Shown here piece after piece: positions 32,322-51,318 of a stretch of 64,000 nucleotides of DNA. The notes below the pieces were generated by a model. That model searched no databases, was not told the origin of the DNA, and saw only the letters and a list, made by a program, of their open reading frames with translations. Numbering within the stretch: position 1 is the first letter of the stretch; every line of letters starts with the position of its first letter. The DNA is taken from the NCBI GenBank assembly GCA_964581365.1, contig CAZOOF010000003.1, forward strand, positions 28,042-92,041, in the 5' to 3' direction. The DNA is from an uncultured Chromatiales bacterium (lineage in GTDB: Bacteria > Pseudomonadota > Gammaproteobacteria > SZUA-140). The translations under genes were made by a program, and so were the position numbers.

Positions 32322-33740
32322 TTACGGTGCATCTCTGAAGTGTACCGCCACGCCCGCCTCTTCCAGCAGAATCGTTTCAGTGATCCCGGTCAGCTCGGCG
32401 AGCTGCGCCGCCAGGGTTTCGTTGCGCTCATCCCTGGGGTCGAACAGCAGGTAATCGACATTGGCGATGTTTTGCAGCAGCGTTTCGTGGTCAGGGAAGG
32501 GCGGCGGCAGTGGCAGAGTGTGCCTGCGGGTTGCGAGCATGGTCTTGCCCGGCCATTGACTCATCGTCATGGTCGCCTCTTCCCGGCCTGCGTCTTCCAT
32601 CTCCACGCTGAACGCCAGCAGCAGCGCATCGACGGGCGGCAGCTGATTCTGTGAGATCGCATAGTGGTGTGCCTTGCCCACCTGCATGAAGATGATCGAG
32701 GCGATGAAGACCACGACGAAAACGAGCCCGCGCTGACCGGCGAATCCACCCAGTCCCATGCCGCGATTGAAGGCGATCAGGCGCGGGACCCCGAGATAGA
32801 GGGTCATGGCCATGGCCAGCAGAGCCCAGGCTCCGTCGGCGGCGGGCAGCCCGAAAATCAGCGCCAGCAGCAGCATGCGCGTCATCATGTCTTCCGCGGC
32901 CATGCGTCGCCCCGCGATTCCAGCTCCGAGGATCGCGATGGCGAACAGAATCGCCAGCAGCCAGGCGAGGGCGGTACCGGGAGCATCCCGCCCGAGAATC
33001 GCCTGGTACAGAGAGACGAACGGCTGATCCAGCCACTGGAGCGCCGGCCAGCCGAGGCGCAAAATCAGAATGAGCGCCACCGCTACCGCGACGCCGATGT
33101 ACACATGCCGCTGTTGACGGGCATCGAGCGGACGGCTGCGCCATTCCCAGAGGAGCGCCGCCGGATAGGCGAGGGCGGCGGGATGAATGCTGACGGCGAT
33201 CATGATCCACAGCAGCTGGGCAAAAAACCAGCCGCCGAGCGGGCGCTGCACGCTGCGGTATTTCCGGTCGATCCAGAGACCGACGCCGAAGGCGAGCAGC
33301 AGGTAGGGGCCTGCGCCGAGCGCATCGATCTCGAACAGGGTGGCGGGGGCGATCAGCAGCAGGCCGCTGGCGATGAGGGCGCTCTCGCTATCGAAGTTCC
33401 GCCGCGCCCAGCGGTAGAGCATGGTCACTGCCGCCGCCATGATCAGCAGGGCGTGGACCTTGGCGGCGAACATGCTGCCTGGCCAGTAGGCGCCCAGCGG
33501 CGCAAGCAGTATCGCGCGCAGATCCGGCAAGCCAAGCAGGACGACGGTACTGATGATGCGTTCGCCTACCGACCAGACGAGCAGGAGGGCTCGCGCACCA
33601 GCTTCGTCGACGCCGAACTCATCGACGCGCACGAGCCCCAGTCCGAGTATGGCGGCGCCCCAGGCCGCAAGCACCAGAACTCCCCAGTAGTCCTCTTTCG
33701 CCCTGGTCAGGACGTGCCTTCCACGATCGCGTAAATTCAT
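32322..33740 (-). CDS. Polytopic membrane protein resembling GT-C (ArnT/PMT-like) glycosyltransferases
   Basis: 472 aa, more than 10 hydrophobic segments, acidic DE pair after TM1, soluble C-terminal domain. Confidence 0.55.
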   Translation of the reverse strand: MNLRDRGRHVLTRAKEDYWGVLVLAAWGAAILGLGLVRVDEFGVDEAGARALLLVWSVGERIISTVVLLGLPDLRAILLAPLGAYWPGSMFAAKVHALLIMAAAVTMLYRWARRNFDSESALIASGLLLIAPATLFEIDALGAGPYLLLAFGVGLWIDRKYRSVQRPLGGWFFAQLLWIMIAVSIHPAALAYPAALLWEWRSRPLDARQQRHVYIGVAVAVALILILRLGWPALQWLDQPFVSLYQAILGRDAPGTALAWLLAILFAIAILGAGIAGRRMAAEDMMTRMLLLALIFGLPAADGAWALLAMAMTLYLGVPRLIAFNRGMGLGGFAGQRGLVFVVVFIASIIFMQVGKAHHYAISQNQLPPVDALLLAFSVEMEDAGREEATMTMSQWPGKTMLATRRHTLPLPPPFPDHETLLQNIANVDYLLFDPRDERNETLAAQLAELTGITETILLEEAGVAVHFRDAP

Positions 33741-35697: not shown

Positions 35698-35795
35698 TTT
35701 TTCCCTTTGTCTTTGACCGAAAGACCGTTCCCGATCGAAGCGTCCCCGCAGCCAGATCTGCCGCGCGCGCTTGAGACCGGATGGCAGGAGAGGAT

Positions 35796-36335
35796 ATGAG
35801 CGACCACAATGCGCCCTGGGCGAAAGATGTCGAGTACACCCGCTATACGGTGATGTTCGTTTATGCCTGCATCATCTACGCCATCATCGGATTCTCATGG
35901 GGAGCGCTGATGGGCGGGATTCAGGAGTTCAGGCACTTCGTCGATCATCGGATGCATGGTCAGTTGATCGTGCGCGCCCACACCCACGTCAATCTGCTGG
36001 GCTGGGTGGAAATGGCGATCTTCGGAGCGGTCTACTATTTCATTCCTCGCCTGGTGCGCAGGCCCATCCATAGCATGACCTTGGTGAAGGTTCACTTCTG
36101 GATGCATAACGTCGGACTGGTGGGCATGGTGGTCCTTTTCACCATCGCCGGCGTGATCGGCGGTATGGCGAGCGTGGAGATGAGCCCGGAAGAGGTCGAG
36201 CCGATGGTCAGTCCGCTGCTGGCCACCATGGGTATCTTCGGAACCCTCGTCCTGTTGGCCAACATCATCTGGGGCTATAATATTTTCCGCACCTGTGCAG
36301 GATGGTCGAAAGGCAAGGAGTGGCAGGAACGATGA
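35796..36335 (+). CDS. Stand-alone 4-TM heme-copper oxidase repeat protein (HCOH-type) no. 1
   Basis: RAHTHVNLLGW...YYFIPRLVRRPIHS...VHFW matches helices IX-XII of the CcoN in this window (VAHAHLALLGF...FHFW). Confidence 0.8.
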   Translation: MSDHNAPWAKDVEYTRYTVMFVYACIIYAIIGFSWGALMGGIQEFRHFVDHRMHGQLIVRAHTHVNLLGWVEMAIFGAVYYFIPRLVRRPIHSMTLVKVHFWMHNVGLVGMVVLFTIAGVIGGMASVEMSPEEVEPMVSPLLATMGIFGTLVLLANIIWGYNIFRTCAGWSKGKEWQER

Positions 36336-38387: not shown

Positions 38388-39794
38388 ATGTTCAAGTATC
38401 TGCTGGCCAAAAACGAGGAGATCCCGCGCGGTACAGCGGCGGTCTACTTCGGTGTTTCTTCCATCATCTGGTTCGTGATCGGGACCGGCCTCGGCTCCTT
38501 CAACGCCGCCAAGCTCGCGTTCCCCGACTTCGTCACCGGCTCGGAGCTGTTCTCCTTCGGTCACATGCGCCAGGTCCACGTGATGGCCGTCATCTTCGGC
38601 TGGATCTCGATGGCTTTCGCCATGGCCATGATGTACATCACGCCGGCACTGGGAAATACCAAGCTCTGGTCTGAGAAGCTGGGCGTCTGGAACTGCTTCA
38701 TCTGGAACTTCGGTCTTTCTCTCGGCCTGACCGTGCTGTGGGCCGGAATGAGCTCTGGCCGTGAGTACTCGGACTTCCCGTGGTTCATCGACCTGGTGAT
38801 TCTGTTCGGCATCGTTCTGCCGCTCGGCATCAACGTGTGGATGACCATCATCAAGCGCCGCACCCAGGGTATCTACACCACCAACTGGTTCTTTGCCGCC
38901 GGCTGCTTCATGCTGTTCATCGTGCTTCTGGTCGGTAACCTGCCGGAGTACTTCCAGCTCACGGGTCTGACCGAGGCCTATCTGACCTGGTGGTTCGCGC
39001 ACAACGTGCTTGGACTGTGGATCACCCCGATCGCTGCGGCCATCGCGTACTACACCGTGCCGAAGATCACCGGTAATCCGCTGTACTCGCACCGCATCGG
39101 CCACCTGCACTTCTGGTCCGTGGTGGTGTTCTACTCCACGCCCGCTGCGCATCACCTGATGTCGGCGCCGCTGCCGGAGTGGCTGAAGTCCTTCGCATCG
39201 GTGGAGGGCGTGCTCATTCTGGTGCCGGCCATTGCGTTCGTGTCCAACCTGCTGCTGACCATGACCGGCAAGTGGCGGTACTTCGTCGACAACGTCGAGA
39301 TCAAGTTCACGATTACCGGCGTGCTGATGGCGATCCCGCTGAACATGCAGGGCGGATTCCAGCAGACCCGTGCCATCAACTGGTACATCCATGGTACCGG
39401 CTGGATCGTGGCGCACGCACACCTGGCACTGCTCGGCTTCTCGACCTTCCTCGAGGCTGCCGCCGTGTACTATGGTCTGCAGACGATCCTGCGTCGCAAG
39501 CTCTACTCGCTGGCGCTGGCTAACTTCCACTTCTGGTTCCTGCTGATCGGTTTCACGATCTACTGGATCTCCATGACGATTGCGGGCCTGATCCAGGGTG
39601 CCGGCAAGATCTATGAAGTGCCCTACATCGACGTCGTGATCGCGGAGCATCCGTACATGATCGCCCGTTGGGTTGGCGGCACCATGGTGTTTACCGGAAA
39701 CCTTGTCTGGCTCTACAACATGTGGATGACTGCGCGTGAAGGCACTGTGATCCCCGCGGGCCGTCTGCCGCACGAGATCGCCTACGAGCGCTAG
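38388..39794 (+). CDS. ccoN: C-family (cbb3-type) heme-copper oxidase subunit I, divergent
   Basis: H64, WWFAH205N, Y249-x5-H255H256, H343-x-H345 and REY motifs; 12 TM. Confidence 0.92.
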   Translation: MFKYLLAKNEEIPRGTAAVYFGVSSIIWFVIGTGLGSFNAAKLAFPDFVTGSELFSFGHMRQVHVMAVIFGWISMAFAMAMMYITPALGNTKLWSEKLGVWNCFIWNFGLSLGLTVLWAGMSSGREYSDFPWFIDLVILFGIVLPLGINVWMTIIKRRTQGIYTTNWFFAAGCFMLFIVLLVGNLPEYFQLTGLTEAYLTWWFAHNVLGLWITPIAAAIAYYTVPKITGNPLYSHRIGHLHFWSVVVFYSTPAAHHLMSAPLPEWLKSFASVEGVLILVPAIAFVSNLLLTMTGKWRYFVDNVEIKFTITGVLMAIPLNMQGGFQQTRAINWYIHGTGWIVAHAHLALLGFSTFLEAAAVYYGLQTILRRKLYSLALANFHFWFLLIGFTIYWISMTIAGLIQGAGKIYEVPYIDVVIAEHPYMIARWVGGTMVFTGNLVWLYNMWMTAREGTVIPAGRLPHEIAYER

Positions 39795-39840: not shown

Positions 39841-40791
39841 GTGGCATTCCGTGAATATAAAATAGGTGCGCGACTGTTCGGTGTTGCGCTCGGCGGATCG
39901 ATGATGATCACCATCTACATGCCGAGCCTGGACATCGTTCAGGTGGCGTCGACCGAGATGGGCCTGCGCAAGGGTCTCATGTACGGCCGAGTCGGCGGGT
40001 TCTCGGTCGAAGATCCGTTCCTGCAGGGGGCGGGCAAGCCGGTTACCGTGGTCCTGCGTAAGGATCCGCGGAATGGTGAGCCCATCGATGAGACGTACGC
40101 CTACGTCTACGAAGCGGGCATTCCGTTCACCAGTTCCATCCGTCACCCGCGCATCATGGGTGAAGGCGTGGAGGACCTGAGTCTGCAGCAGGGTCGTATC
40201 GGCGAAGCTGATCAGAATCGGGGCGCTGTGTTCCTGGTGGTCGAAGGCCGCTGGAACGGTGAGCCGACGCACTACATCGAGAACGCGACGGCTACCCGCA
40301 ATTGGACGCCCGAGCTCATCCGCAACGCGGTTAGCGATCAGGACATGCACTATGTCGGCTCCGGCAAGATCATGTTCGTGCGTGAAGGCTGCTGGTGGTG
40401 TCATACGCTCCTCCCGGAGCAGACGCAGGACTGGCAGGCGTTCGGCGCTCCGCCGCGGCTGGGTGACTTCAACAGTGAGTCGCCGACTGCGTTCGGATCC
40501 GACCGCAAGGCGCCCGATCTGCTGCATGTTGCCTCGCGCAACTCCTCACGCGAGTGGATGGTGATGCACTTCTTTAATCCGCGTCTCGTTCAGCCGCACT
40601 CGATCATGCCCCGCTACGACTATCTGTGGGGTGAGGTTGATGCGGATGGCAACCGGATCGATTACAAGAAGTGGCGTGCCGAGTACAGCGAGTACGCCTC
40701 CGGCAAGCGGATCTATCCGCCGGAAGTGCCGGAGCCTGCCGCTGATAGCGACGCCCGCTATCTGATCGACTTCGTGCTGAGCCTCAAATAA
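39841..40791 (+). CDS. ccoO: cbb3-type subunit II with N-terminal periplasmic insertion
   Basis: REGCWWCH, GSDRKAPDL, HFFNPRLVQPHSIMPRY. Confidence 0.88.
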   Translation: MAFREYKIGARLFGVALGGSMMITIYMPSLDIVQVASTEMGLRKGLMYGRVGGFSVEDPFLQGAGKPVTVVLRKDPRNGEPIDETYAYVYEAGIPFTSSIRHPRIMGEGVEDLSLQQGRIGEADQNRGAVFLVVEGRWNGEPTHYIENATATRNWTPELIRNAVSDQDMHYVGSGKIMFVREGCWWCHTLLPEQTQDWQAFGAPPRLGDFNSESPTAFGSDRKAPDLLHVASRNSSREWMVMHFFNPRLVQPHSIMPRYDYLWGEVDADGNRIDYKKWRAEYSEYASGKRIYPPEVPEPAADSDARYLIDFVLSLK

Positions 40792-40807
40792 GAGAGGGGG
40801 GTAAGAC

Positions 40808-41443
40808 ATGGCCTGGAAATTCGATAACCCGCTCTATAGTCTGACCGATGAGGAGCAGAACGAGAAGGCGAAGGAGCTGTGGGAAAAGGAAGCCCTCGGT
40901 GGAATCACCGAGGACAACAACCGCCTGCCGCGTCCGGTGGTCTGGTTGCTTGCGCTTACCATCGTGAGCGCGTTCCTGATGACGTTCCCTCTCTGGGGGC
41001 AGCGTCCGTCGGCGGCAATCTATGAGGACTACGTCGCGCTGATGGATTCGCCTGAGATTCAGGCGATTCAGCAGGAACAGGGCGATGACGCTGCCATGGC
41101 TGCGATGGTCAAGAAGGTGCGCGACCAGGGCTCGACCTACCAGGGGCTGCTGGATCGTCATCCGCTGTCCATGAATGAGCTGCGTCTCATTCGGGATGAC
41201 ATCATCGAGCTGCAGAACACCCGGGTCGACCTGGAAGAGTACTCGGTTGTGGGTGACCAGGTTCTGCTGGCGAACTTTGAAGGCAACTGGAAGCCGGATG
41301 GGACTCGCGAGCGCAAGCAGCCGTGGTGGGACAAGGGGTACACGATCGACCTGTTTTACGTGACGTACTTCTGTCTGGCGGTGTTGATCGCGGTGAAGCG
41401 TCTGCCGAACTATCGTTGGCAGCCGACGCATCACGGTCACTGA
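40808..41443 (+). CDS. Heme-less CcoP-like subunit
   Basis: GGITEDNNRLPRP resembles the CcoP N-terminal motif; 2 TM; no CxxCH. Confidence 0.7.
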   Translation: MAWKFDNPLYSLTDEEQNEKAKELWEKEALGGITEDNNRLPRPVVWLLALTIVSAFLMTFPLWGQRPSAAIYEDYVALMDSPEIQAIQQEQGDDAAMAAMVKKVRDQGSTYQGLLDRHPLSMNELRLIRDDIIELQNTRVDLEEYSVVGDQVLLANFEGNWKPDGTRERKQPWWDKGYTIDLFYVTYFCLAVLIAVKRLPNYRWQPTHHGH

Positions 41444-42828: not shown

Positions 42829-43298
42829 GTCCGCAGACCAGACGCAACATCCTGGGAACCATTGCCGTACTTGCCGGCTGTGCCGTGGTCTACGTTGGCG
42901 ACTGGCTGGTCGGCGTGGATCTGGAGTTGTGGTGGGGACTGGCCACCTTTACTCCGATCTGGATGGTCGCAATGTTTGTAGTGCCGCTGATCTCCGGTCT
43001 GGTGTGCGCGATGATCTTCGGTCTGGGCGGAAAGTGGCTGTGTTATTTCCCTCCGCTTATCGTCCGTACCATCAATTACTTTGCCTACGTCTATGAGTTC
43101 AAGGTGCCGCCGCCTGGCGCCGAGCTGCTGTTCTTTCCCTACTGGATCATGTTCGTCATCTTGGTCGTGGAAGCGGCGGCGTTCGGGGGCGTGTTTGGAG
43201 AGATCGTCGTCAAGAAGACGTATGGTCGTCTGCCGCGGGAAATGGTGTACCGCAAGGCAGGTGATCAGTCGGCCGGTTCCGGAGGTCAGGGTGGATGA
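42825..43298 (+). CDS. Hypothetical 4-TM protein (start 42819 or 42825)
   Basis: Hydrophobic; overlapping stop/start junctions with both neighbours. Confidence 0.7.
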   Translation: MSPQTRRNILGTIAVLAGCAVVYVGDWLVGVDLELWWGLATFTPIWMVAMFVVPLISGLVCAMIFGLGGKWLCYFPPLIVRTINYFAYVYEFKVPPPGAELLFFPYWIMFVILVVEAAAFGGVFGEIVVKKTYGRLPREMVYRKAGDQSAGSGGQGG

Positions 43299-44356
43299 CC
43301 TCGACTCGTGCCTTGCCGCGTATAGATGAGGCCATCCGGCGGCGCCGCAAGCGCTACCTGACGGCGACGATTATCACCTGTATTGCTCTTGCCATGGTCG
43401 GTGGGAGCCTGCACATCGTGCAGCTCGGAGCCAAGCGCATGGAGGAGATGCGGGGCAAGGCGAGCTACGATGTCAGTGAGATGCGCTCGCGGATTCGGGC
43501 TGCTGGCGAGGAACTTCATCGTCACCGCCTCCACGAGGAAAGACAGACATTCGTCGAGTCCTATTCGGTGGAGGAGGCCGAGGCACTGCTCACGCCGGAG
43601 CAGTGGGCCGAGCTGGAGACGATGGTGACGATTCCCGCTGGGCCCTTCATCATCGGTACTAACCGGCCACGCAGCGCCGTGCAGGATCAGCCTGAACACC
43701 GGATAAATCTCCCTGCCTTCCGCATCGACACGTATCCGGTAACGAATGCGCAGTATGCCCGCTTTGTCGCGGCCACCGGGCATCGCCCGCCGCTGAACTG
43801 GGATCAGGGCCGGATTCGCCCGGGTACCGAGCTGCATCCGGTCACCATGGTTTCCTGGTATGACGCTAACGCGTATGCCAGCTGGGCCGGGAAGCGTCTG
43901 CCGACGGAAGCTGAGTGGGAAAAGGCCGCGCGAGGACCGGATGGCAAGCGCTGGCCATGGGGTGATCTCATGGATGCATCGCGCCTCAATACCTATTACA
44001 ACGTGGGCCGGACCACCGAGGTGACGCGTTACGTCTCCGGCGCCAGCGAGTACGGTGTCATGGACCTTGCCGGCAACGTCAGTGAGTGGACGAATGACAA
44101 CTTTCGCCCCTATCCCGGCAGCGATGCGCCGCCGGAGGTGTTCGAGGCGAAGATTGCGGTGGCCACAACGCCGCTGGATGAGGCAATGCAAGTTGTGGAT
44201 TTGGTCCCGGTGGACGGCAGCTACAAGGTGCTGCGCGGGGGTTCGTGGAAGAGCGACCCGTTCTCGACCGCTGCCTACCATCGGAATTATTCATGGCCGC
44301 ACTACGCTTCCGACTTCTTCGGGTTCCGGACGGCGGCAGATATCGTTACGGAATGA
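43295..44356 (+). CDS. Membrane-anchored FGE-sulfatase (NirV/pFGE-like) domain protein
   Basis: YPVTNAQY, RLPTEAEWEKAARG, DLAGNVSEW, RGGSW, GFR. Confidence 0.9.
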   Translation: MTSTRALPRIDEAIRRRRKRYLTATIITCIALAMVGGSLHIVQLGAKRMEEMRGKASYDVSEMRSRIRAAGEELHRHRLHEERQTFVESYSVEEAEALLTPEQWAELETMVTIPAGPFIIGTNRPRSAVQDQPEHRINLPAFRIDTYPVTNAQYARFVAATGHRPPLNWDQGRIRPGTELHPVTMVSWYDANAYASWAGKRLPTEAEWEKAARGPDGKRWPWGDLMDASRLNTYYNVGRTTEVTRYVSGASEYGVMDLAGNVSEWTNDNFRPYPGSDAPPEVFEAKIAVATTPLDEAMQVVDLVPVDGSYKVLRGGSWKSDPFSTAAYHRNYSWPHYASDFFGFRTAADIVTE

Positions 44357-45063: not shown

Positions 45064-47688
45064 ATGAGCCGCCGTTTCCTTTATCTGCTTTACGCCTGTT
45101 CGGGAGCGACCAGCCTCGCCTTCGAGGTGTTGTGGGCGCGCATGCTTTCCCTGCAGTTCGGCGTCAGTATCTTCGGTGTCGTGGTGACCATCGCCGCCTT
45201 CATGGCCGGTCTGGGCCTCGGCTCGCTGTTCGGTCTGCGGCTGGGGCGGACCAGCCGCAGACCTCTGGTCGCTTTTGCCTGTCTGGAGGGGGGCATTGCC
45301 ATCTATGCGCTGGCATTGCCGTCGCTGCTGTCGGGTGCCGAATCTTTCCTGTTGCAAGTGGCTGCCGGGGCGCCACTACAGACCTGGTATCTGTTTCAGT
45401 CCGTCGCGCTGCTGGCGCTGATTCTGCTGCCGGCTGTGGCGATGGGCGCGGGCTTCCCCCTGGTGCTCAAGGCGCTCGGCGCGCGCCCGCATGTCCTCGG
45501 CACCCTGTATGGTGTCAACGCATTCGGTGCCGCTCTGGGCGCTTTGCTGCCCCTGTGGCTGCTGCCCCGGTTTGGTTGGATGGCGGCAGTCGAAGCGGTA
45601 GCTGTGCTCGGTCTGCTGGTGGGTACATTCGCTGGCGCGCTCGCCTGGCGCGGCGAGTTTCGTGTGATTCCCGAACCGGGGATGAGGGCGGTCGATCGGC
45701 AGCGGCCAGCTCTGGTCTCACTGGTGGCCTACGCGGTCATTGGCGCCGCTGCCATCATGCTCGAGGTGGCCTGGACCCGCCTGTACGGGATGGTTCTGCT
45801 GCGCACCGAGTATGTGATGGCGGTGATTCTCGCCGTCTATCTCCTCGGTATCGGCGGCGGCAGTCTGCTTGCGCGCTGGCTGCGAGATTCGCGCTGGCTG
45901 GCCGTGTTCCCTCTGGCGGCCGCATTGCTGGCTTTACCCAGCCTGTGGCTCTTGCCGGCGATCTCGACCTGGTCGCAGGGTCAGGATTTCGGTTCTCTAT
46001 GGACGGCGCTGCTGGCTGAAGGGCTGGTGTTGGCGGCAGTGACTTTGCCTGTGACACTGCTGCTTGGCGCCTGGCTGCCGCTGCTCGCCCGGCGCTACGG
46101 CGACGAGGGATCATTCGGCCCGCTGTTCTACGGCGTGAACTCGGTCGGTTCGGCGCTGGGGGGCCTGCTCGCCGGTTTCGTGTTGATTCCATTGCTCGGG
46201 ACACCGGCAACCCTGGTGGCGGCGGCGCTCGCGCTTTTCGTTGCCGGTTGCGTCTGGGCTCCGTCCCCTCGTATCTGGCTGGCCTTCCCCCTGCTGCTCG
46301 TCGCGTTCTGGCCGGTGACGGATTTCCCTCCGGTTGCCAGGCTGGTGCCCGGGATGCACGCCGCCAGTGAGGACCTGTACCGCTATGAGGACGCGATGGC
46401 GATCACGCACGTGATCGAGCAGGCCGATGGGCAGCGTCTGCTGCTGAGCGATCTGCAGCGTATGGATGCCTCCAGCGAGCAGGCTGCGGTCGAACTGCAG
46501 AAGAACCAGGCGCGACTGCCGCTGATGCTGCATCCCCGTGCGGAATCGATCCTGTTTCTGGGGCTGGGGACGGGTATATCGGCTGCCGGCGCGCTCGAGT
46601 TTCCGGAGCTGCAGAAGCGCGCTGCGGTCGAGCTTTCGCTCGGTTCGATTCGCGCCGCGCGGGACTGGTTCGCTCCGGTCAATGAGGGGGTCATCGGACA
46701 GATGACCGTGGTGCGCGATGATGCCCGCCGTTATCTCATGGCGGATGAGGCTCAATGGGATGTCATCGTCGGTGACGTGTTTCATCCCGATCTGGTCGGA
46801 CGCAGCGCGCTGCTGTCCGTTCAGCAGTTCGAGCGTGCACGCTCACGTCTGGCACCGCAGGGCATTTTCGTGCAATGGCTGGCTCTGAACCAGTTCGACC
46901 ACGATTCCCTGCAGGTGGTGCTGCGCAGTTTTTCCCGGGTGTTCCCGGACGGCGTGATGTTCATGGACGGGTTTCGCATCGCGATGGTCGGCGGCCTGGG
47001 GGGAAGGGACCCGGTTCGCTGGATGGATTCGCTCCGCGCCCGCGACGAGGCTCTGGAGGCTGGCGAAGGAATCTGGACCTGGCTCGGGCGCTATTGGGGC
47101 ACGATTCCGCCGGATGACGGCGGACCGGTGCAGGATGAGTGGCGTCCCCATATCGAGTTCCGTCTGCCACAAGCGCGCTATGGCGGTGGCCTGGGACTCG
47201 ATCAGTTGCTCGATTGGTTGCTGCGCATCCGTCCTGAGTCGTCGCGCGCCGCCAGCGAGCTTGGCGTGACGCCCGCCGACCGCGAACGTTTCGAGGCCTG
47301 CTATACAGCCTCGGATCTGGCACTGAAAGCCTGGCTTGCGGGACTGAGGGGCGATGTGCCCCAGTCGCGGCGTCTGCTGCGCTTTGCCTGGGAAGCGAAC
47401 CCGGAGGATCGCTGGACAGGTTTCTCGCTGGCGGACAATATTCTTGCGGAACTGCAGGAATCACCGCGGGGGCTGGAGGACAGGCGTCGCGTACTGGAGG
47501 CCGTGCTTTCCATCAGGCCGGATCATGCCGATACCCTGCGCGCGCTGTGGCATCTCGACGCCGCCCTGGGGCGCCATGAGAGCGCTGCGGCCTGGTTCGA
47601 GCGCCTTGCCGAAGTCAGTCCGCTCGATCGCGAGGTGACGGCAGCGCGGGCTGCTGAGCACGGTGCGGCAACGCCGCCTCCAAAGTGA
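45064..47688 (+). CDS. Fused polytopic membrane domain plus spermidine-synthase-like SAM-binding domain
   Basis: Duplicated TM motifs (EVLWAR/EVAWTR; YGVNAFG/YGVNSVG), LFLGLGTGI, DARRYL, DVIVGDVFHP. Confidence 0.85.
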   Translation: MSRRFLYLLYACSGATSLAFEVLWARMLSLQFGVSIFGVVVTIAAFMAGLGLGSLFGLRLGRTSRRPLVAFACLEGGIAIYALALPSLLSGAESFLLQVAAGAPLQTWYLFQSVALLALILLPAVAMGAGFPLVLKALGARPHVLGTLYGVNAFGAALGALLPLWLLPRFGWMAAVEAVAVLGLLVGTFAGALAWRGEFRVIPEPGMRAVDRQRPALVSLVAYAVIGAAAIMLEVAWTRLYGMVLLRTEYVMAVILAVYLLGIGGGSLLARWLRDSRWLAVFPLAAALLALPSLWLLPAISTWSQGQDFGSLWTALLAEGLVLAAVTLPVTLLLGAWLPLLARRYGDEGSFGPLFYGVNSVGSALGGLLAGFVLIPLLGTPATLVAAALALFVAGCVWAPSPRIWLAFPLLLVAFWPVTDFPPVARLVPGMHAASEDLYRYEDAMAITHVIEQADGQRLLLSDLQRMDASSEQAAVELQKNQARLPLMLHPRAESILFLGLGTGISAAGALEFPELQKRAAVELSLGSIRAARDWFAPVNEGVIGQMTVVRDDARRYLMADEAQWDVIVGDVFHPDLVGRSALLSVQQFERARSRLAPQGIFVQWLALNQFDHDSLQVVLRSFSRVFPDGVMFMDGFRIAMVGGLGGRDPVRWMDSLRARDEALEAGEGIWTWLGRYWGTIPPDDGGPVQDEWRPHIEFRLPQARYGGGLGLDQLLDWLLRIRPESSRAASELGVTPADRERFEACYTASDLALKAWLAGLRGDVPQSRRLLRFAWEANPEDRWTGFSLADNILAELQESPRGLEDRRRVLEAVLSIRPDHADTLRALWHLDAALGRHESAAAWFERLAEVSPLDREVTAARAAEHGAATPPPK

Positions 47689-47720
47689 AAAATAGCCTGC
47701 TACATGCTAGAATTCGCAAT

Positions 47721-49049
47721 ATGTACCACTCCAAGGCACTGTCCAGTATCCCGGTCGTAGTGACCGCGGACGCAAGGGCCGGACGGAGATTGCGCGGAAG
47801 GCGTCGTGCGGTACAGCTCGGCACCCTCCTGCTCGCGATGCTCATTCCGCTGTCCGGTCTATTCCGTATCGATCCGGTGGCTGGCGCCTTCGTGGTGCTC
47901 GACCGTCAGATCTGGTTCGCCGATTTCTACATCGTCGTCGGCCTGTGGATGGCTGTTTCCAGTGTGCTGGTCCTGACCTATTCCTTGGTGGGAACCGCAT
48001 TCTGCGGCTGGTCCTGCCCGCAGAATACGCTGGCGGAGTGGGCCAACCGCATGACGACACGGCTGCTGGGGAAGCGTGCCCAAATCAATCTCGACGGGGA
48101 ACCGATCAAGGTTTCCGCGGGCAAGGACAAGGCGCTCAACTGGGTGATTCTCGGCAGCCTGTTCCTGCTCGCCGCGATGGTGATCGCCATCATTCCGATG
48201 CTGTATTTCTACACGCCCGAGCTGATCTGGCGCTTCATCACTTTCCAGCACGACGCCCGACTGGCTGATTCCCTGCACTGGATCTACATGATCTTCGTGC
48301 TGGTGATGTTCGTGAACATCGCCTTCGTGCGCCATTTCTGGTGCCGCTTCATGTGTGTGTACCGGGTCTGGCAGCATACCTTCAAGACGCGCGAAACGCT
48401 GCATATCGCCCATGACAAGAGTCAGCCCGACGAGTGCGCGCGCTGCAACTTCTGTGAAACCTCGTGTTTCATCGGCATCGATCCGCGTGAAACGGTGGTC
48501 TATGATGCCTGTATCAATTGCGGCGATTGCATTACCGCGTGCAGTTCGATTCGCGGTGCGCGCAAGACCGGCAACAGCCTGCTGCGATTCGAATTCGGGG
48601 AGCGCAGCGAAGAGGCGGACAGACAGCAGGATCGCGGCCGCCACAGTAACGTCGGTTCCGTGATGAAGCGCGCTCCCTGGGCGACGGCGCTGACCGTCTT
48701 TGGTCTGGTTCTGTTCGCCTGGGGCATCATCACCTATGATCCCGTCCATCACACGGTTTACCGTGCCGAGTCGGTGCAGGGCGGGCAGATCAACGATTAT
48801 CGCGTCAACGTCGCGAACAAGCTCTATCGGCCCATGAGTCTGACCGTGAGCTTGGAGGGCCTGCCGGACGGGGCGTATCGACTGGCGTCTGGCGTGGTTG
48901 ATTTTACCGAAGCCGGTCGGCAGGACGTCCGTCTGGAAATCGCCAATTCCCTGTCCCCCGGACTGTATCCGTTCCTGGTGCATGTCGATTCCGAGGACGG
49001 CAAGCGGCGCACGTTCCGCGTCCATCATTTGGTCCAGGAGGGTGCATGA
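47721..49049 (+). CDS. ccoG: CcoG/FixG-like 4Fe-4S membrane protein
   Basis: CGWSCPQ, WCRFMC, CARCNFCETSC, CINCGDCITAC; C-terminal Ig-like domain. Confidence 0.82.
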   Translation: MYHSKALSSIPVVVTADARAGRRLRGRRRAVQLGTLLLAMLIPLSGLFRIDPVAGAFVVLDRQIWFADFYIVVGLWMAVSSVLVLTYSLVGTAFCGWSCPQNTLAEWANRMTTRLLGKRAQINLDGEPIKVSAGKDKALNWVILGSLFLLAAMVIAIIPMLYFYTPELIWRFITFQHDARLADSLHWIYMIFVLVMFVNIAFVRHFWCRFMCVYRVWQHTFKTRETLHIAHDKSQPDECARCNFCETSCFIGIDPRETVVYDACINCGDCITACSSIRGARKTGNSLLRFEFGERSEEADRQQDRGRHSNVGSVMKRAPWATALTVFGLVLFAWGIITYDPVHHTVYRAESVQGGQINDYRVNVANKLYRPMSLTVSLEGLPDGAYRLASGVVDFTEAGRQDVRLEIANSLSPGLYPFLVHVDSEDGKRRTFRVHHLVQEGA

Positions 49050-50231: not shown

Positions 50232-50756
50232 TCAGGCCTCATTGCCGGAAGGTCGCCGGCGCTTTGCCAGCGTCCTGCTCTGCCGCCAATGGCGAAGGAG
50301 CAGAATCTTTTCTCCCCCCCGCGCTTCGGCGCAGCGCGAACAGGTCAGATGACCGAGCAGGAGCTCGCGAGGCATCTTGCCGGCATCGAGCAGACGACTC
50401 TGGATATCTCGCACTACCGGCCGCAGGCTGCCAAGGTTTCCCTGATGGAGCCAGGCGTAAACCTGATAGGGGCGGGGGAGCCAGCCGACCAGGTGCGAAG
50501 GTGACTGGGTATTCTCCAGCAGGCGAATGAGGGTGCCGCGGAACATTCCGGTACGCACCAAGGCCAGCCCCGGCCATTTCTCCTTCAGTCCGAGGCGATC
50601 GATGTTGGCCTGTTGCCGATGCAACTGCGCGTCATACCCGATCGGCATGTGCAGGAGCATCGGAACCTGTACCCGATGGACACAATGTCCACCGAGATCA
50701 ACGTCCTGCGCATGCCAATCAGGCCAGGTCGACGGGCATCCGCATTCCAGGATCAT
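50232..50756 (-). CDS. Conserved hypothetical protein with CxC and CxxC motifs
   Basis: ECGCP at the N-terminus and TCSRC near the C-terminus; ATGA overlap with the upstream gene. Confidence 0.7.
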   Translation of the reverse strand: MILECGCPSTWPDWHAQDVDLGGHCVHRVQVPMLLHMPIGYDAQLHRQQANIDRLGLKEKWPGLALVRTGMFRGTLIRLLENTQSPSHLVGWLPRPYQVYAWLHQGNLGSLRPVVRDIQSRLLDAGKMPRELLLGHLTCSRCAEARGGEKILLLRHWRQSRTLAKRRRPSGNEA

Positions 50757-51271
50757 GCCTTTCGCGAGTAAACCGTTCGCGCCGTCATGAATACGTTGGC
50801 GAAGAAGATCCAGAAGCCCATACCCATTGCCGTCGAGATGGTGGCGATCAGGGGGCGATAGTAGCGGTGAATCTCGTAGATGGCATCCGTCTCACCCTGC
50901 AGCAGCAGGCGGCCTTCAGTGATGCCGAAAATCATGAGCGTGGAATAAAAACCGGCCACGCCGAGCGCGGTCCACCAGAACGAGTGATCCACCAGCCGCA
51001 TGGACCAGATCGGACGCTTGGAGATGGTGGCAAACAGGTAGTAGGTGACCGCCATGCACAAGAGTACTACCCCGCCCACCACATTGATATGGGCATGGGC
51101 GAGTGGGTCGATCATGTGTCCGGGACCACCGTACGGGCTGCCGATCGAATCCAGCCACGCCCGCACTGGCGGGATTACCTGGATGACGCCATGAACCGTG
51201 CCGATGAAGAAGAATGTGGCCGAACCTACTAGAAATTTCAGTAGCTTACGCAGATCCTGTTCTGCTGACAT
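50753..51271 (-). CDS. Stand-alone 4-TM heme-copper oxidase repeat protein (HCOH-type) no. 2
   Basis: LAHAHINVVGG...YYLFATISKRPIWS...HSFWW. Confidence 0.8.
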   Translation of the reverse strand: MSAEQDLRKLLKFLVGSATFFFIGTVHGVIQVIPPVRAWLDSIGSPYGGPGHMIDPLAHAHINVVGGVVLLCMAVTYYLFATISKRPIWSMRLVDHSFWWTALGVAGFYSTLMIFGITEGRLLLQGETDAIYEIHRYYRPLIATISTAMGMGFWIFFANVFMTARTVYSRKA

Positions 51272-51318
51272 ATCCTGCCCCGATGGCGCTGGCACAAGGC
51301 GCGCGGGTTGTCTGGCTG

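Follow-up and report, generated by a model that had tools for sequence, protein, structure and literature searches.

A non-canonical cbb3-type CcoN from an uncultured Chromatiales bacterium lacks an otherwise near-universal channel tyrosine and carries a new, putatively buried glutamate on helix X

Gene content of the locus

The window, that is, the whole 64,000-nucleotide stretch of DNA that was analysed, belongs to contig CAZOOF010000003.1 of an uncultured Chromatiales bacterium (assembly GCA_964581365.1). It carries a ccoN-like gene followed by genes for two putative partner subunits:

38388..39794, plus strand: ccoN-like gene, 468 aa; catalytic subunit I of a non-canonical ("distal"-type) cbb3 oxidase
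39841..40791, plus strand: ccoO-like mono-heme c subunit, 316 aa, in which an inserted domain of about 100 residues separates the membrane anchor from the CWWCH heme site
40808..41443, plus strand: CcoP', a CcoP-like membrane protein with two helices and no heme; in the predicted complex it packs against TM7, TM8 and the TM6-7 loop of CcoN

The 468-aa ORF matched Pfam COX1 with 259.2 bits in a profile search, and phmmer aligned it with P. stutzeri CcoN (3mk7_A) at an E value of 1.1e-60. The CcoO-like subunit scored 60.8 bits on FixO (cut-off, 29.6) at residues 174-265, and a Foldseek search with its inserted domain returned no PDB match at E <= 0.001. The third subunit matched FixP_N alone, with 21.6 bits and thus under the cut-off of 24.9, and has no CxxCH motif; by these profile and motif data, it is a heme-less anchor homologue of CcoP and not a diheme CcoP. 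Moreover, a genome-wide search for diheme CcoP (TIGR00782) gave a best score of 38 bits against a cut-off of 179.95. As in canonical cbb3 oxidases, a mono-heme CcoO-type partner adjoins CcoN, whereas the canonical CcoNOQP has a diheme CcoP and this locus has the heme-less anchor homologue, without ccoQP. Elsewhere in the window, a 472-aa ORF (32322-33740, minus strand) was considered as a Cyc2 candidate and rejected, as it has many hydrophobic helices and no CxxCH.

The same gene order as here is given for the "cbb3-1/cbb3-2" region of Ca. Tenderia electrophaga in passages of a Tenderiales preprint, namely, diheme c, monoheme c, truncated CcoN, thioredoxin, CcoN, CcoO, monoheme c, CcoG and truncated CcoN. 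At the gene level, this locus appears to be a member of the distal cbb3/cbb3-1 cluster that is already in print. Passages of PMC8788666 and PMC7029218 attribute the "distal" cbb3 subtree, which is set off from the proximal (canonical) one by its phylogenetic position and its subunit composition, to Ducluzeau et al. 2008; we apply the term following the usage of these iron-oxidiser papers. The papers on distal cbb3/cbb3-1 treat it, in the passages concerned, at the level of genes or clusters with no mention of channel residues, and we found no residue-level analysis of distal cbb3/cbb3-1 CcoN in the literature.

Metal ligands, fold and likely reaction

Residues are numbered here by the ORF. P. 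stutzeri numbering equals ORF numbering +2, constant across residues 205-345 of the phmmer alignment, and the codons of the ligand, TM7, TM8, TM9 and TM10 residues were checked directly in the DNA. Conservation was assessed in 141 close relatives, 13 intermediate relatives (51-67% identical) and 41 other six-His C-family representatives (35 non-canonical and 6 canonical). The ligand positions, with P. stutzeri equivalents, are as follows:

38577..38579, plus strand: H64, heme b axial ligand (H60), by alignment; conserved in 141/141, 13/13 and 41/41
39000..39002, plus strand: H205, CuB ligand and cross-link partner (H207), by alignment and conservation; H205+4 is G209
39132..39134, plus strand: Y249, helix-VII cross-link Tyr (Y251), by alignment, conservation and codons
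39150..39155, plus strand: H255-H256, CuB ligands (H257/H258), by alignment, conservation and codons
39414..39422, plus strand: H343, heme b3 ligand (H345), and H345, heme b ligand (H347), by alignment, conservation and codons

All six His ligands are kept, two for heme b (H64 and H345), one for heme b3 (H343) and three for CuB (H205, H255 and H256), and Y249 is found in all 141 close and all 13 intermediate relatives, the cross-link itself being predicted from the alignment. These residues align with those of P. stutzeri CcoN and their codons are confirmed, in agreement with an earlier sequence-only reading of this DNA, which had described an intact O2-reductase site and no NOR-type Glu at H205+4.

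The AF2 model (pLDDT, 92.7; pTM, 0.92) had only cbb3 CcoN proteins as top Foldseek matches (TM, 0.89-0.91), with an rmsd of 1.6-2.1 A against solved CcoN. The protein shares with canonical CcoN (P. stutzeri 3MK7/5DJQ; 9G6B, 8SMR, 6XKW) the 12-helix fold (TM, 0.90-0.91), the ligands, the helix-VII Tyr and the equivalents of E122 (E126 here), T215, Y223, H243 and N289, at about 28-33% identity. However, it scored only 220.6 bits on TIGR00780 (equivalog cut-off, 583.15), a profile on which scores of 579-670 bits were reached solely by the 6 representatives with E321, H241 and D338. In the tree, it groups with the non-canonical members, apart from the 6 canonical representatives. Its nearest relatives among the other non-canonical C-family oxidases are P0122, P0124, P0125, P0128 and P0131 (30-38% identity); like it, these other non-canonical oxidases score under the TIGR00780 cut-off (208-360 bits).

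We also considered NO reduction, or chemistry other than primarily O2 reduction. Passages of PMC11214002 report that NORs arose several times from C-family relatives, and the TM8 carboxylate of our protein (E273) lies near active-site depth. However, cNOR and qNOR have a Glu ligand four residues after the CuB/FeB His and lack the cross-link Tyr, whereas this protein has G209, Y249 and three CuB His. The sNOR family described in parts of PMC11214002 offers no more than an analogy: these HCOs have lost a conserved K-channel Ser and have a conserved Glu at a structurally different place, but they derive from the B family, are proposed NO reducers and have no active-site Tyr, while our protein is of the C family and keeps the Tyr. 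Further evidence came from the genome, in which the ccoN-like gene is the only full-length HCO found, although at 94.6% completeness a second oxidase is not strictly excluded in this genome alone; cytochrome bd is encoded as well. All 8 genomes of the genus, this one included, have exactly one C-family match (216-225 bits), and in the family canonical CcoN occurs in 0/16 of the genomes searched and the low-scoring type in 13/16. Across the family genomes searched, it is also the sole HCO found, other C-family oxidases being likewise missing. With a single HCO in the genome and no canonical CcoN in the family genomes searched, the ccoN-like protein most likely works as an O2 reductase, as far as gene content can tell, and a switch to NO chemistry appears very unlikely.

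Substitutions in the K-type channel and around heme b3

We take the K_C channel to consist, in P. stutzeri numbering, of T215, Y223, S240, H243, N289 and Y317. Y317 is reported from mutagenesis to be important in model cbb3 enzymes, and E323 was reportedly found by Buschmann in 2010 to be hydrogen-bonded to the heme b3 proximal His. Four of the six channel residues are kept, T213 (T215), Y221 (Y223) and N287 (N289) in 141/141 close relatives each and H241 (H243) in 141/141 close and 11/13 intermediate relatives. The altered segments are the following:

39099..39110, plus strand: G238-H239-L240-H241 on TM7; S240 replaced by G, H239 clade-specific, H241 retained (H243 equivalent)
39198..39209, plus strand: S271-V272-E273-G274 on TM8; S271 and E273 new (E273 in the tight clade and P0278), near-universal Ser at 274 gone
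39330..39350, plus strand: A315-I-P317-L-N319-M-Q321 on TM9; Y317 replaced by A, Pro and Asn gained, E323 site occupied by Gln
39399..39401, plus strand: G338, equivalent to D340; the position varies, with Gly confined to the tight clade

In the AF2 model, TM8 spans residues 264-276 (E273), TM9 residues 303-326 (A315 and Q321) and TM10 residues 338-368 (E356). Relative to canonical CcoN, the protein thus shows Y317A, S240G, S276G, E323Q and D340G, with H239, S271, E273, P317, N319, S352 and E356 as new residues. The four replacements S240 to G238, Y317 to A315, E323 to Q321 and D340 to G338 had been called before from a manual alignment, together with new Glu residues at E273 and E356; the phmmer alignment and the codons bear out each of them, E273 aligning with M275 and E356 with S358 of P. 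stutzeri CcoN, and the formal alignment does not restore Tyr or Glu at the changed sites.

A315, Q321, G338, E273 and E356 are each present in 141/141 close relatives and G238 in 138/141; conservation at this range is weak evidence on its own, because 187 of the 468 positions are invariant across those 141 proteins. The wider comparison separated the substitutions. At position 315, Tyr is found in 40 of the 41 other six-His C-family representatives and Phe in the remaining one, while A315 occurs in all 13 intermediate relatives and in none of the 41. At the E323 site, Gln stands in 33/35 non-canonical cluster representatives and Glu in 6/6 canonical ones; in this comparison Gln is shown to be the ordinary state of non-canonical C-family enzymes and nothing peculiar to this protein. 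The D340 site is variable among the 41 (D in 21, N in 6, Q in 6, H in 4, other residues in the rest), with His in most of the nearest relatives, and G or A also replaces S240 in 6/41. In the other non-canonical oxidases, Tyr 315 and Ser 274 are retained and E356, S352 and H239 never occur; the H243 site is Gly in 28 of the 35, but His (H241) in this protein.

Thus, the exchange of Y317 for Ala is, by the sequence comparison, truly clade-specific, and it is accompanied by P317, N319, H239, S274G, S352 and E356. The tree places the clade signature (A315, P317, N319, H239, G274, S352 and E356) on one stem branch (SH-aLRT, 100), and because all these changes fell on one branch, their co-occurrence carries no statistical weight. 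Judged from their distribution, the substitutions are neither chance nor an assembly quirk. However, the idea of a single coherent rewiring of the proton/ion pathway has to be given up, because the substitutions have different ages and contexts. The earlier reading had proposed altered pumping stoichiometry, ion specificity or heme b3 potential as putative consequences. Literature searches on cbb3/CcoN channel residues (P. stutzeri and V. cholerae numbering) returned nothing on them, and PMC8361435 held no information on cbb3 channels.

Predicted contacts of H239 and E273 with the heme-less subunit

The predicted CcoN-CcoP' complex had a score of 0.70, compared to 0.00 for the best of 3 controls; the score mark, which 116/157 solved complexes and 2/215 mismatches reach, is a rough guide only, as our own alignments were used here, and passing it may reflect likeness to solved CcoN-CcoP structures. 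Model runs agreed in at least 79% of contacts, with a partner pLDDT of at least 75. The predicted interface includes H239 and residues 271-276 and excludes G238, H241, Y249 and E356, and CcoP' residues 28-41 touch CcoN residues 225-237. We infer from the model that H239 and E273 are probably contacts to CcoP'. E273 was a late gain (tight clade plus P0278 only), and position 273 is polar or acidic in some other non-canonical oxidases (E in P0128, D in P0131). P0186 was considered as a NOR-like bridge for asking whether E273 corresponds to the cNOR helix-VIII Glu and was set aside, being closer to cbb3 than to NorB.

New intramembrane carboxylates might also indicate a changed ion specificity, with Na+ or another cation translocated instead of H+, and a Na+-translocating cbb3 is reported for Thioalkalivibrio in the abstract of PMC8874543. 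The carboxylates are the only feature of the protein that points this way: nothing further in support was found, a cation-site geometry could not be demonstrated, E273 lies at the periphery in the predicted complex and the named hosts of the enzyme are mostly neutrophilic iron oxidisers, not natronophiles. We regard this reading as hardly credible.

A clade-specific polar pair on helix X

The second new Glu belongs to one further segment:

39441..39455, plus strand: S352 to E356 on TM10; two polar residues specific to the clade, spaced by one turn and sharing the face of H345

E356 was an old and fixed gain, present in 141/141 close and 12/13 intermediate relatives and in 0/41 others. Relative to the conserved TM10 face, the helical phases were -8 degrees for H343, -168 for H345, +172 for S352 and -148 for E356, a placement that is approximate (TM8, moreover, is kinked at P280). 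By helical phase, S352 and E356 thus belong to the heme-b face of helix X, with E356 about 150 degrees off the heme-b3-ligand face. Since E356 lies on the heme-b side, a direct role in the K-type channel is not supported. The Glu itself is real and fixed, but helical phase puts it off the face of the known channel.

Could all of this be compatible with ordinary cbb3 energetics, the substitutions being neutral or fitted to partner subunits and E356 being structural, protonated and hydrogen-bonded to S352 or the backbone? The changes at E323, D340 and S240 are common or variable family-wide, E273 and H239 fall within the predicted subunit interface, and the TM10 face with positions 352 and 356 is the less conserved one, canonical members having N, S or T at these positions. 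However, A315 and E356 persist down to 51% identity and are absent from all 41 others, the signature positions include no clade-specific basic partner for E356, and a buried unpaired carboxylate is costly unless used. We hold this explanation to be plausible but the less probable one.

Proposed mode of action

On the combined sequence and model data, we favour, with a probability of roughly 0.55, the reading that the protein is the catalytic subunit of a functional cytochrome c:O2 oxidoreductase that generates proton-motive force and belongs to the non-canonical "distal" CcoN-CcoO cbb3 type. Because the third subunit no longer carries hemes, electrons would enter via the one heme c of the neighbouring CcoO-like subunit. 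Protons would still enter via the K-type (K_C) channel, whose mouth and lower half appear to be retained (H241, N287, Y221, T213 and the acidic CcoP' N-terminus over the TM6-7 loop). The upper channel would be rebuilt, with Ala in place of Tyr at 315, Gly in place of Ser at 238 and 274, a Pro kink at 317 and Asn 319, most likely giving a wider water-filled relay that reaches the cross-linked Y249. S352 and E356 would form a polar pair, buried and unpaired, on that side of helix X which faces heme b and about three turns beneath the ligand of this heme. E356 may be protonatable and coupled either to heme b or to a water cavity, and would not replace Y317.

The loss of Y317 could instead have impaired the K_C route without any rebuilding of it. 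The lineage may have given up the K_C Tyr and gained the buried helix-X Glu in favour of a second or re-routed proton path, with an H+/e- ratio different from that of the studied cbb3 enzymes, which we find rather doubtful from the sequence evidence. Its stricter form, in which K_C is functionally cut at the missing Tyr and protons take a new path past S352/E356 on helix X, beneath heme b, looks improbable; it would make the enzyme a C-family oxidase with two routes or a different coupling, and with altered H+/e- stoichiometry. The region beneath heme b corresponds to the H-channel of mitochondrial oxidase; the loss of Y317 is unique, the S240 and S276 equivalents are lost too, a polar i/i+4 pair was gained on the heme-b face of TM10, and losses and gains were fixed on the same stem. 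However, that face has only two new polar residues, with no matching mid-membrane polar additions on TM1, 2, 11 or 12, one branch provides no covariation statistics, and the retained K_C mouth, lower residues and covering CcoP' anchor argue that K_C is still used, as in the favoured reading of a proton-motive oxidase with a rebuilt upper channel.

Occurrence and significance

Relatives of the protein are encoded in at least 358 species genomes, the best 80 being 84-99% identical. Among these best 80, CcoN-CcoO-CcoP' synteny is kept, with CcoO in 79 loci and CcoP' in 78. Hosts include Gallionella, Sideroxydans, Mariprofundus/Zetaproteobacteria, Ca. Tenderia and Ferrovum, and those named are mostly freshwater and marine neutrophilic iron oxidisers. 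The enzyme type is common to iron-oxidising and electrode-oxidising Proteobacteria. The energy margin of neutrophilic iron oxidisers and electroautotrophs is very small, so their growth yield is set by how many charges the terminal oxidase moves per electron. If a novel proton path proved true, it would affect a lineage on which neutrophilic iron oxidisers and cathode-feeding bacteria rely.

To our knowledge, all mechanistic statements on cbb3 oxidases derive from canonical proteobacterial enzymes. The clade departs from these models precisely at the proton-input channel and at the heme b3 proximal hydrogen-bond partner: as aligned, one otherwise near-universal channel Tyr is absent and a new, putatively buried Glu is present, with the metal sites intact. 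It may thus serve as a natural experiment on which K_C residues are dispensable (Y317, S240 and S276) and which are indispensable (Y223, T215 and N289), and also bears on what the heme-less CcoP is retained for. What it offers is a defined set of residues whose putative roles can be tested.

Distal cbb3 genes are described as highly expressed in Sideroxydans ES-1 and as present in Zetaproteobacteria in passages of PMC8788666 and PMC7029218. RNA-library contigs of two studies cover the window at 99% or more, which indicates presence in metatranscriptome libraries and is not proof of transcription; the uncovered bins in X16-X18 of this comparison carry no meaning. A 39206 G>A variant in these contigs, within the TM8 segment, is synonymous.

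Conservation of the catalytic site in CcoN

The oxidase genes and their neighbors are arranged as follows (window positions).

35781-36335, + strand: four-helix protein of 184 aa, matching the last third of COX1 only (58.3 bits), with an H-x-H pair
38388-39794, + strand: ccoN-like ORF of 468 aa (Pfam COX1, 259.2 bits)
39841-40791, + strand: CcoO-like subunit with an inserted alpha/beta domain (residues ~65-165) between the membrane helix and the CWWCH heme site
40808-41443, + strand: CcoP', a heme-less CcoP-like protein whose two membrane helices flank a ~115-residue periplasmic domain
43295-44356, + strand: FGE-sulfatase/EgtB-like protein (Pfam, 194.5 bits), found in the oxidase cluster of 64 of the best 80 loci
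45064-49049, + strand: 874-aa protein (spermidine-synthase-like domain and TPR), then a CcoG-like 4Fe-4S protein
50753-51295, - strand: four-helix protein of 180 aa, matching the last third of COX1 only (36.6 bits)

CcoN scored 220.6 bits against the NCBIfam ccoN equivalog TIGR00780, compared to a cut-off of 583.15. Its closest solved relative was P. stutzeri CcoN (3mk7_A, E 1.1e-60, phmmer alignment), and its AF2 model, built from a 50-row alignment (pLDDT 92.7, pTM 0.92), matched solved CcoN chains with TM 0.90-0.91 and rmsd of 1.6-2.1 Å. Formal alignment to 3mk7_A bore out the six His ligands (H64, H205, H255, H256, H343 and H345) and the helix-VII Tyr (Y249) reported in the sequence-only reading, and placed E126 as the equivalent of E122. 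The NOR-type Glu at H205+4 was indeed absent, the residue there being Gly. Over residues 205-345 our numbering equals that of P. stutzeri minus two, and key codons were checked by direct reading of the DNA. P. stutzeri T215, Y223, H243 and N289 are kept as T213, Y221, H241 and N287, whereas S240, Y317, E323 and D340 are replaced by G238, A315, Q321 and G338, exactly as had been proposed. In P. stutzeri, these residues are assigned to the K-type channel and the b3 proximal network. The two additional glutamates reported earlier, E273 and E356, were likewise found, opposite P. stutzeri M275 and S358.

CcoN was the one full-length heme-copper oxidase in its own genome (94.6% complete), along with the two four-helix COX1-like fragments; cytochrome bd is also encoded there, and CcoP gave no match over the cut-off. 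A canonical CcoN, i.e., one over the TIGR00780 cut-off, was found in 5 of the 26 genomes searched (own included), all 5 outside this family. All eight genomes of the genus had exactly one match (216-225 bits), and in the family the low-scoring type occurred in 13/16 genomes and the canonical type in 0/16. RNA-library contigs from two studies covered ccoN-ccoO-ccoP' at at least 99% identity, once in a single 3,792-nt contig, which shows presence in the libraries and not transcription. They differ from the window in one key codon only, by 39206 G>A, which still encodes Glu at position 273. CcoN is most likely a working oxidase. At base 40796, in the intergenic spacer separating ccoO from the CcoP-like gene, contigs from three RNA-library runs lacked one base relative to the window.

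A known cbb3 variant with a clade-specific channel substitution

The enzyme is a member of an already known cbb3 oxidase variant. A word-index search with CcoN (E <= 1e-10) returned 651 proteins, of which the best 120 were 77-98% identical, nearly all 468 aa long, and came from sources including Mariprofundus ferrooxydans, Zetaproteobacteria and Beta- and Gammaproteobacteria MAGs. An exhaustive search of 50%-identity representatives placed the clade in a single cluster (P0030, 89%), followed by P0121 (57% over residues 9-334) and a remainder at <=39%. Relatives were encoded in 358 species-representative genomes; the best 80 were 84-99% identical, with names such as Chromatiales, Ca. Tenderia, Gallionella, Sideroxydans, Ferrovum and Thiotrichales. 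Gene order in these best 80 loci was 93-aa gene, CcoN, 316-aa CcoO, heme-less CcoP-like, hypothetical, FixS-like, monoheme c, hypothetical and FGE-like, each neighbor being retained in 64-79 of them. The gene cluster appears to be the one published as the "distal" cbb3 of iron oxidizers (PMC8788666, PMC7029218, PMC10734462), and the gene order listed for the "cbb3-1/cbb3-2" region of Ca. Tenderia electrophaga is that of the window (bioRxiv 10.1101/2022.05.06.490989). The passages on this cluster in these four papers and in PMC3770913 and PMC4643136 make no mention of the channel residues.

We then compared four sets. The close set comprised 141 relatives of 460-475 aa, after removal of fragments and over-long entries (P0044, P0107, P0282, P0304, etc.). 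Thirteen intermediates (51-67% identity) came from a second search seeded by P0121; P0121 itself and P0270 were dropped because their last third fails to align. The others were 41 cluster representatives no shorter than 430 aa with all six His, out of 97 aligned; the 56 excluded had one or more ligands missing from the alignment, and 52 representatives below 430 aa were left unaligned. The fourth set, six of these 41, was canonical by an independent label (TIGR00780 579-670 bits, versus 208-360 for the rest that scored).

Residues at channel positions in the clade and in the 41 others
Position 238 (S240): clade G or A; others S 35, G or A 6
Position 241 (H243): clade H in 141/141 close and 11/13 intermediates; others H in 6/6 canonical and 2/35 non-canonical
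Position 315 (Y317): clade A in 141/141 and 13/13; others Y 40, F 1
Position 321 (E323): clade Q in 141/141 and 13/13; others Q in 33/35 non-canonical (W 1, E 1), E in 6/6 canonical
Position 338 (D340): clade G only in the tight clade, intermediates mostly H; others D 21, N 6, Q 6, H 4, others 4

Position 315 is a truly clade-specific loss. By these counts, E323Q is what non-canonical members normally have. The clade is a mosaic at position 241, sharing its His with the canonical group, through either retention or convergence. Outside the clade, 28/35 non-canonical representatives carry Gly at this position.

A scan of all 468 positions against the 41 others showed that A315 is accompanied by P317, H239 and S352 (each 0/41), N319 and S271 (each 1/41) and G274 (Ser in 38/41); further signature positions include Q326, T251, P252 and K407. 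E356 was present in 12/13 intermediates and 0/41 others. In a 63-row IQ-TREE analysis (quick mode), close and intermediate members formed one clade (SH-aLRT 100, stem of 0.65 changes per column), inside which the close set was nested. Since the stem changes all fall on one branch, their co-occurrence counts as one event and is no proof of coupling; invariance inside the close set carries little weight, 187/468 positions being invariant there. Within the clade, only the close set and its sister P0278 have E273, and the remaining intermediates have S, A or T; two unrelated representatives also carry an acid at this position (E in P0128, D in P0131).

In the range P0130-P0269, many of the excluded representatives lacked most of the six His ligands. 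Some may be alignment errors; as a group they suggest that oxidase-like membrane proteins lacking the metal sites are numerous.

Placement of the altered residues and a proposed proton route

The predicted CcoN-CcoP' complex scored 0.70 (best of 3 controls, 0.00), with contact agreement between runs of at least 79% and partner pLDDT of at least 75. This mark was reached by 116/157 solved complexes and 2/215 mismatched pairs, counts that hold roughly here because custom alignments were used; since CcoN-CcoP complexes are already solved, the high score may come from resemblance to them and not from binding. The predicted interface comprised residues 239-240, 243-244 and 247-248 of TM7 and 268-269, 271-276, 278-279, 282-283, 286 and 290 of TM8; G238, H241, Y249 and all TM10 residues were absent from it. 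This list would put H239 and E273 on or beside the CcoP'-facing surface, and both appear adapted to the partner subunit. In the model, channel-facing TM7 residues are opposite that side. The acidic N-terminus of CcoP' is strongly conserved (W25, E26, E28, E35, N37 and P41 invariant in 25 orthologues), and its residues 28-41, four of them invariant (E28, E35, N37, P41), are predicted to contact CcoN loop 225-237 at the cytoplasmic mouth beneath H241.

Helical phase was computed from conservation periodicity among the 41 others, so that angles and turns are estimates. The conserved face of TM7 holds G238 (+4 degrees), V245 and Y249, with H239 104 degrees off. That of TM10 aligns with the b3 ligand H343 (-8 degrees), and the opposite, heme-b side carries H345 (-168), S352 (+172) and E356 (-148). 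Counted along the sequence, E356 is 11 residues from the heme b ligand and roughly three turns beneath it. Because helix X belongs to the three central helices of heme-copper oxidases, E356 is considered unlikely to face lipid.

We propose that protons would still use the K-type route, as the mouth and lower residues of that route and the CcoP-type anchor covering it are all conserved, the anchor despite the loss of hemes from CcoP'. The upper route would be rebuilt around Ala315, Pro317, Asn319 and two Ser-to-Gly changes, probably leaving extra room for water. S352 and E356 are old and fixed and appear unpaired, and helical phase puts them on the side of helix X that faces heme b. Most plainly, they would make a structural hydrogen bond; the boldest reading has protons travel by an additional or redirected path there. 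The altered ion specificity suggested earlier, Na+ in particular, and NO reductase chemistry found no supporting feature in the CcoN analysis.

The inserted domain of the CcoO-like subunit folds confidently (block pLDDT 82-96) and had no PDB match at E <= 0.001 in Foldseek; it may be a docking site substituting for CcoP.
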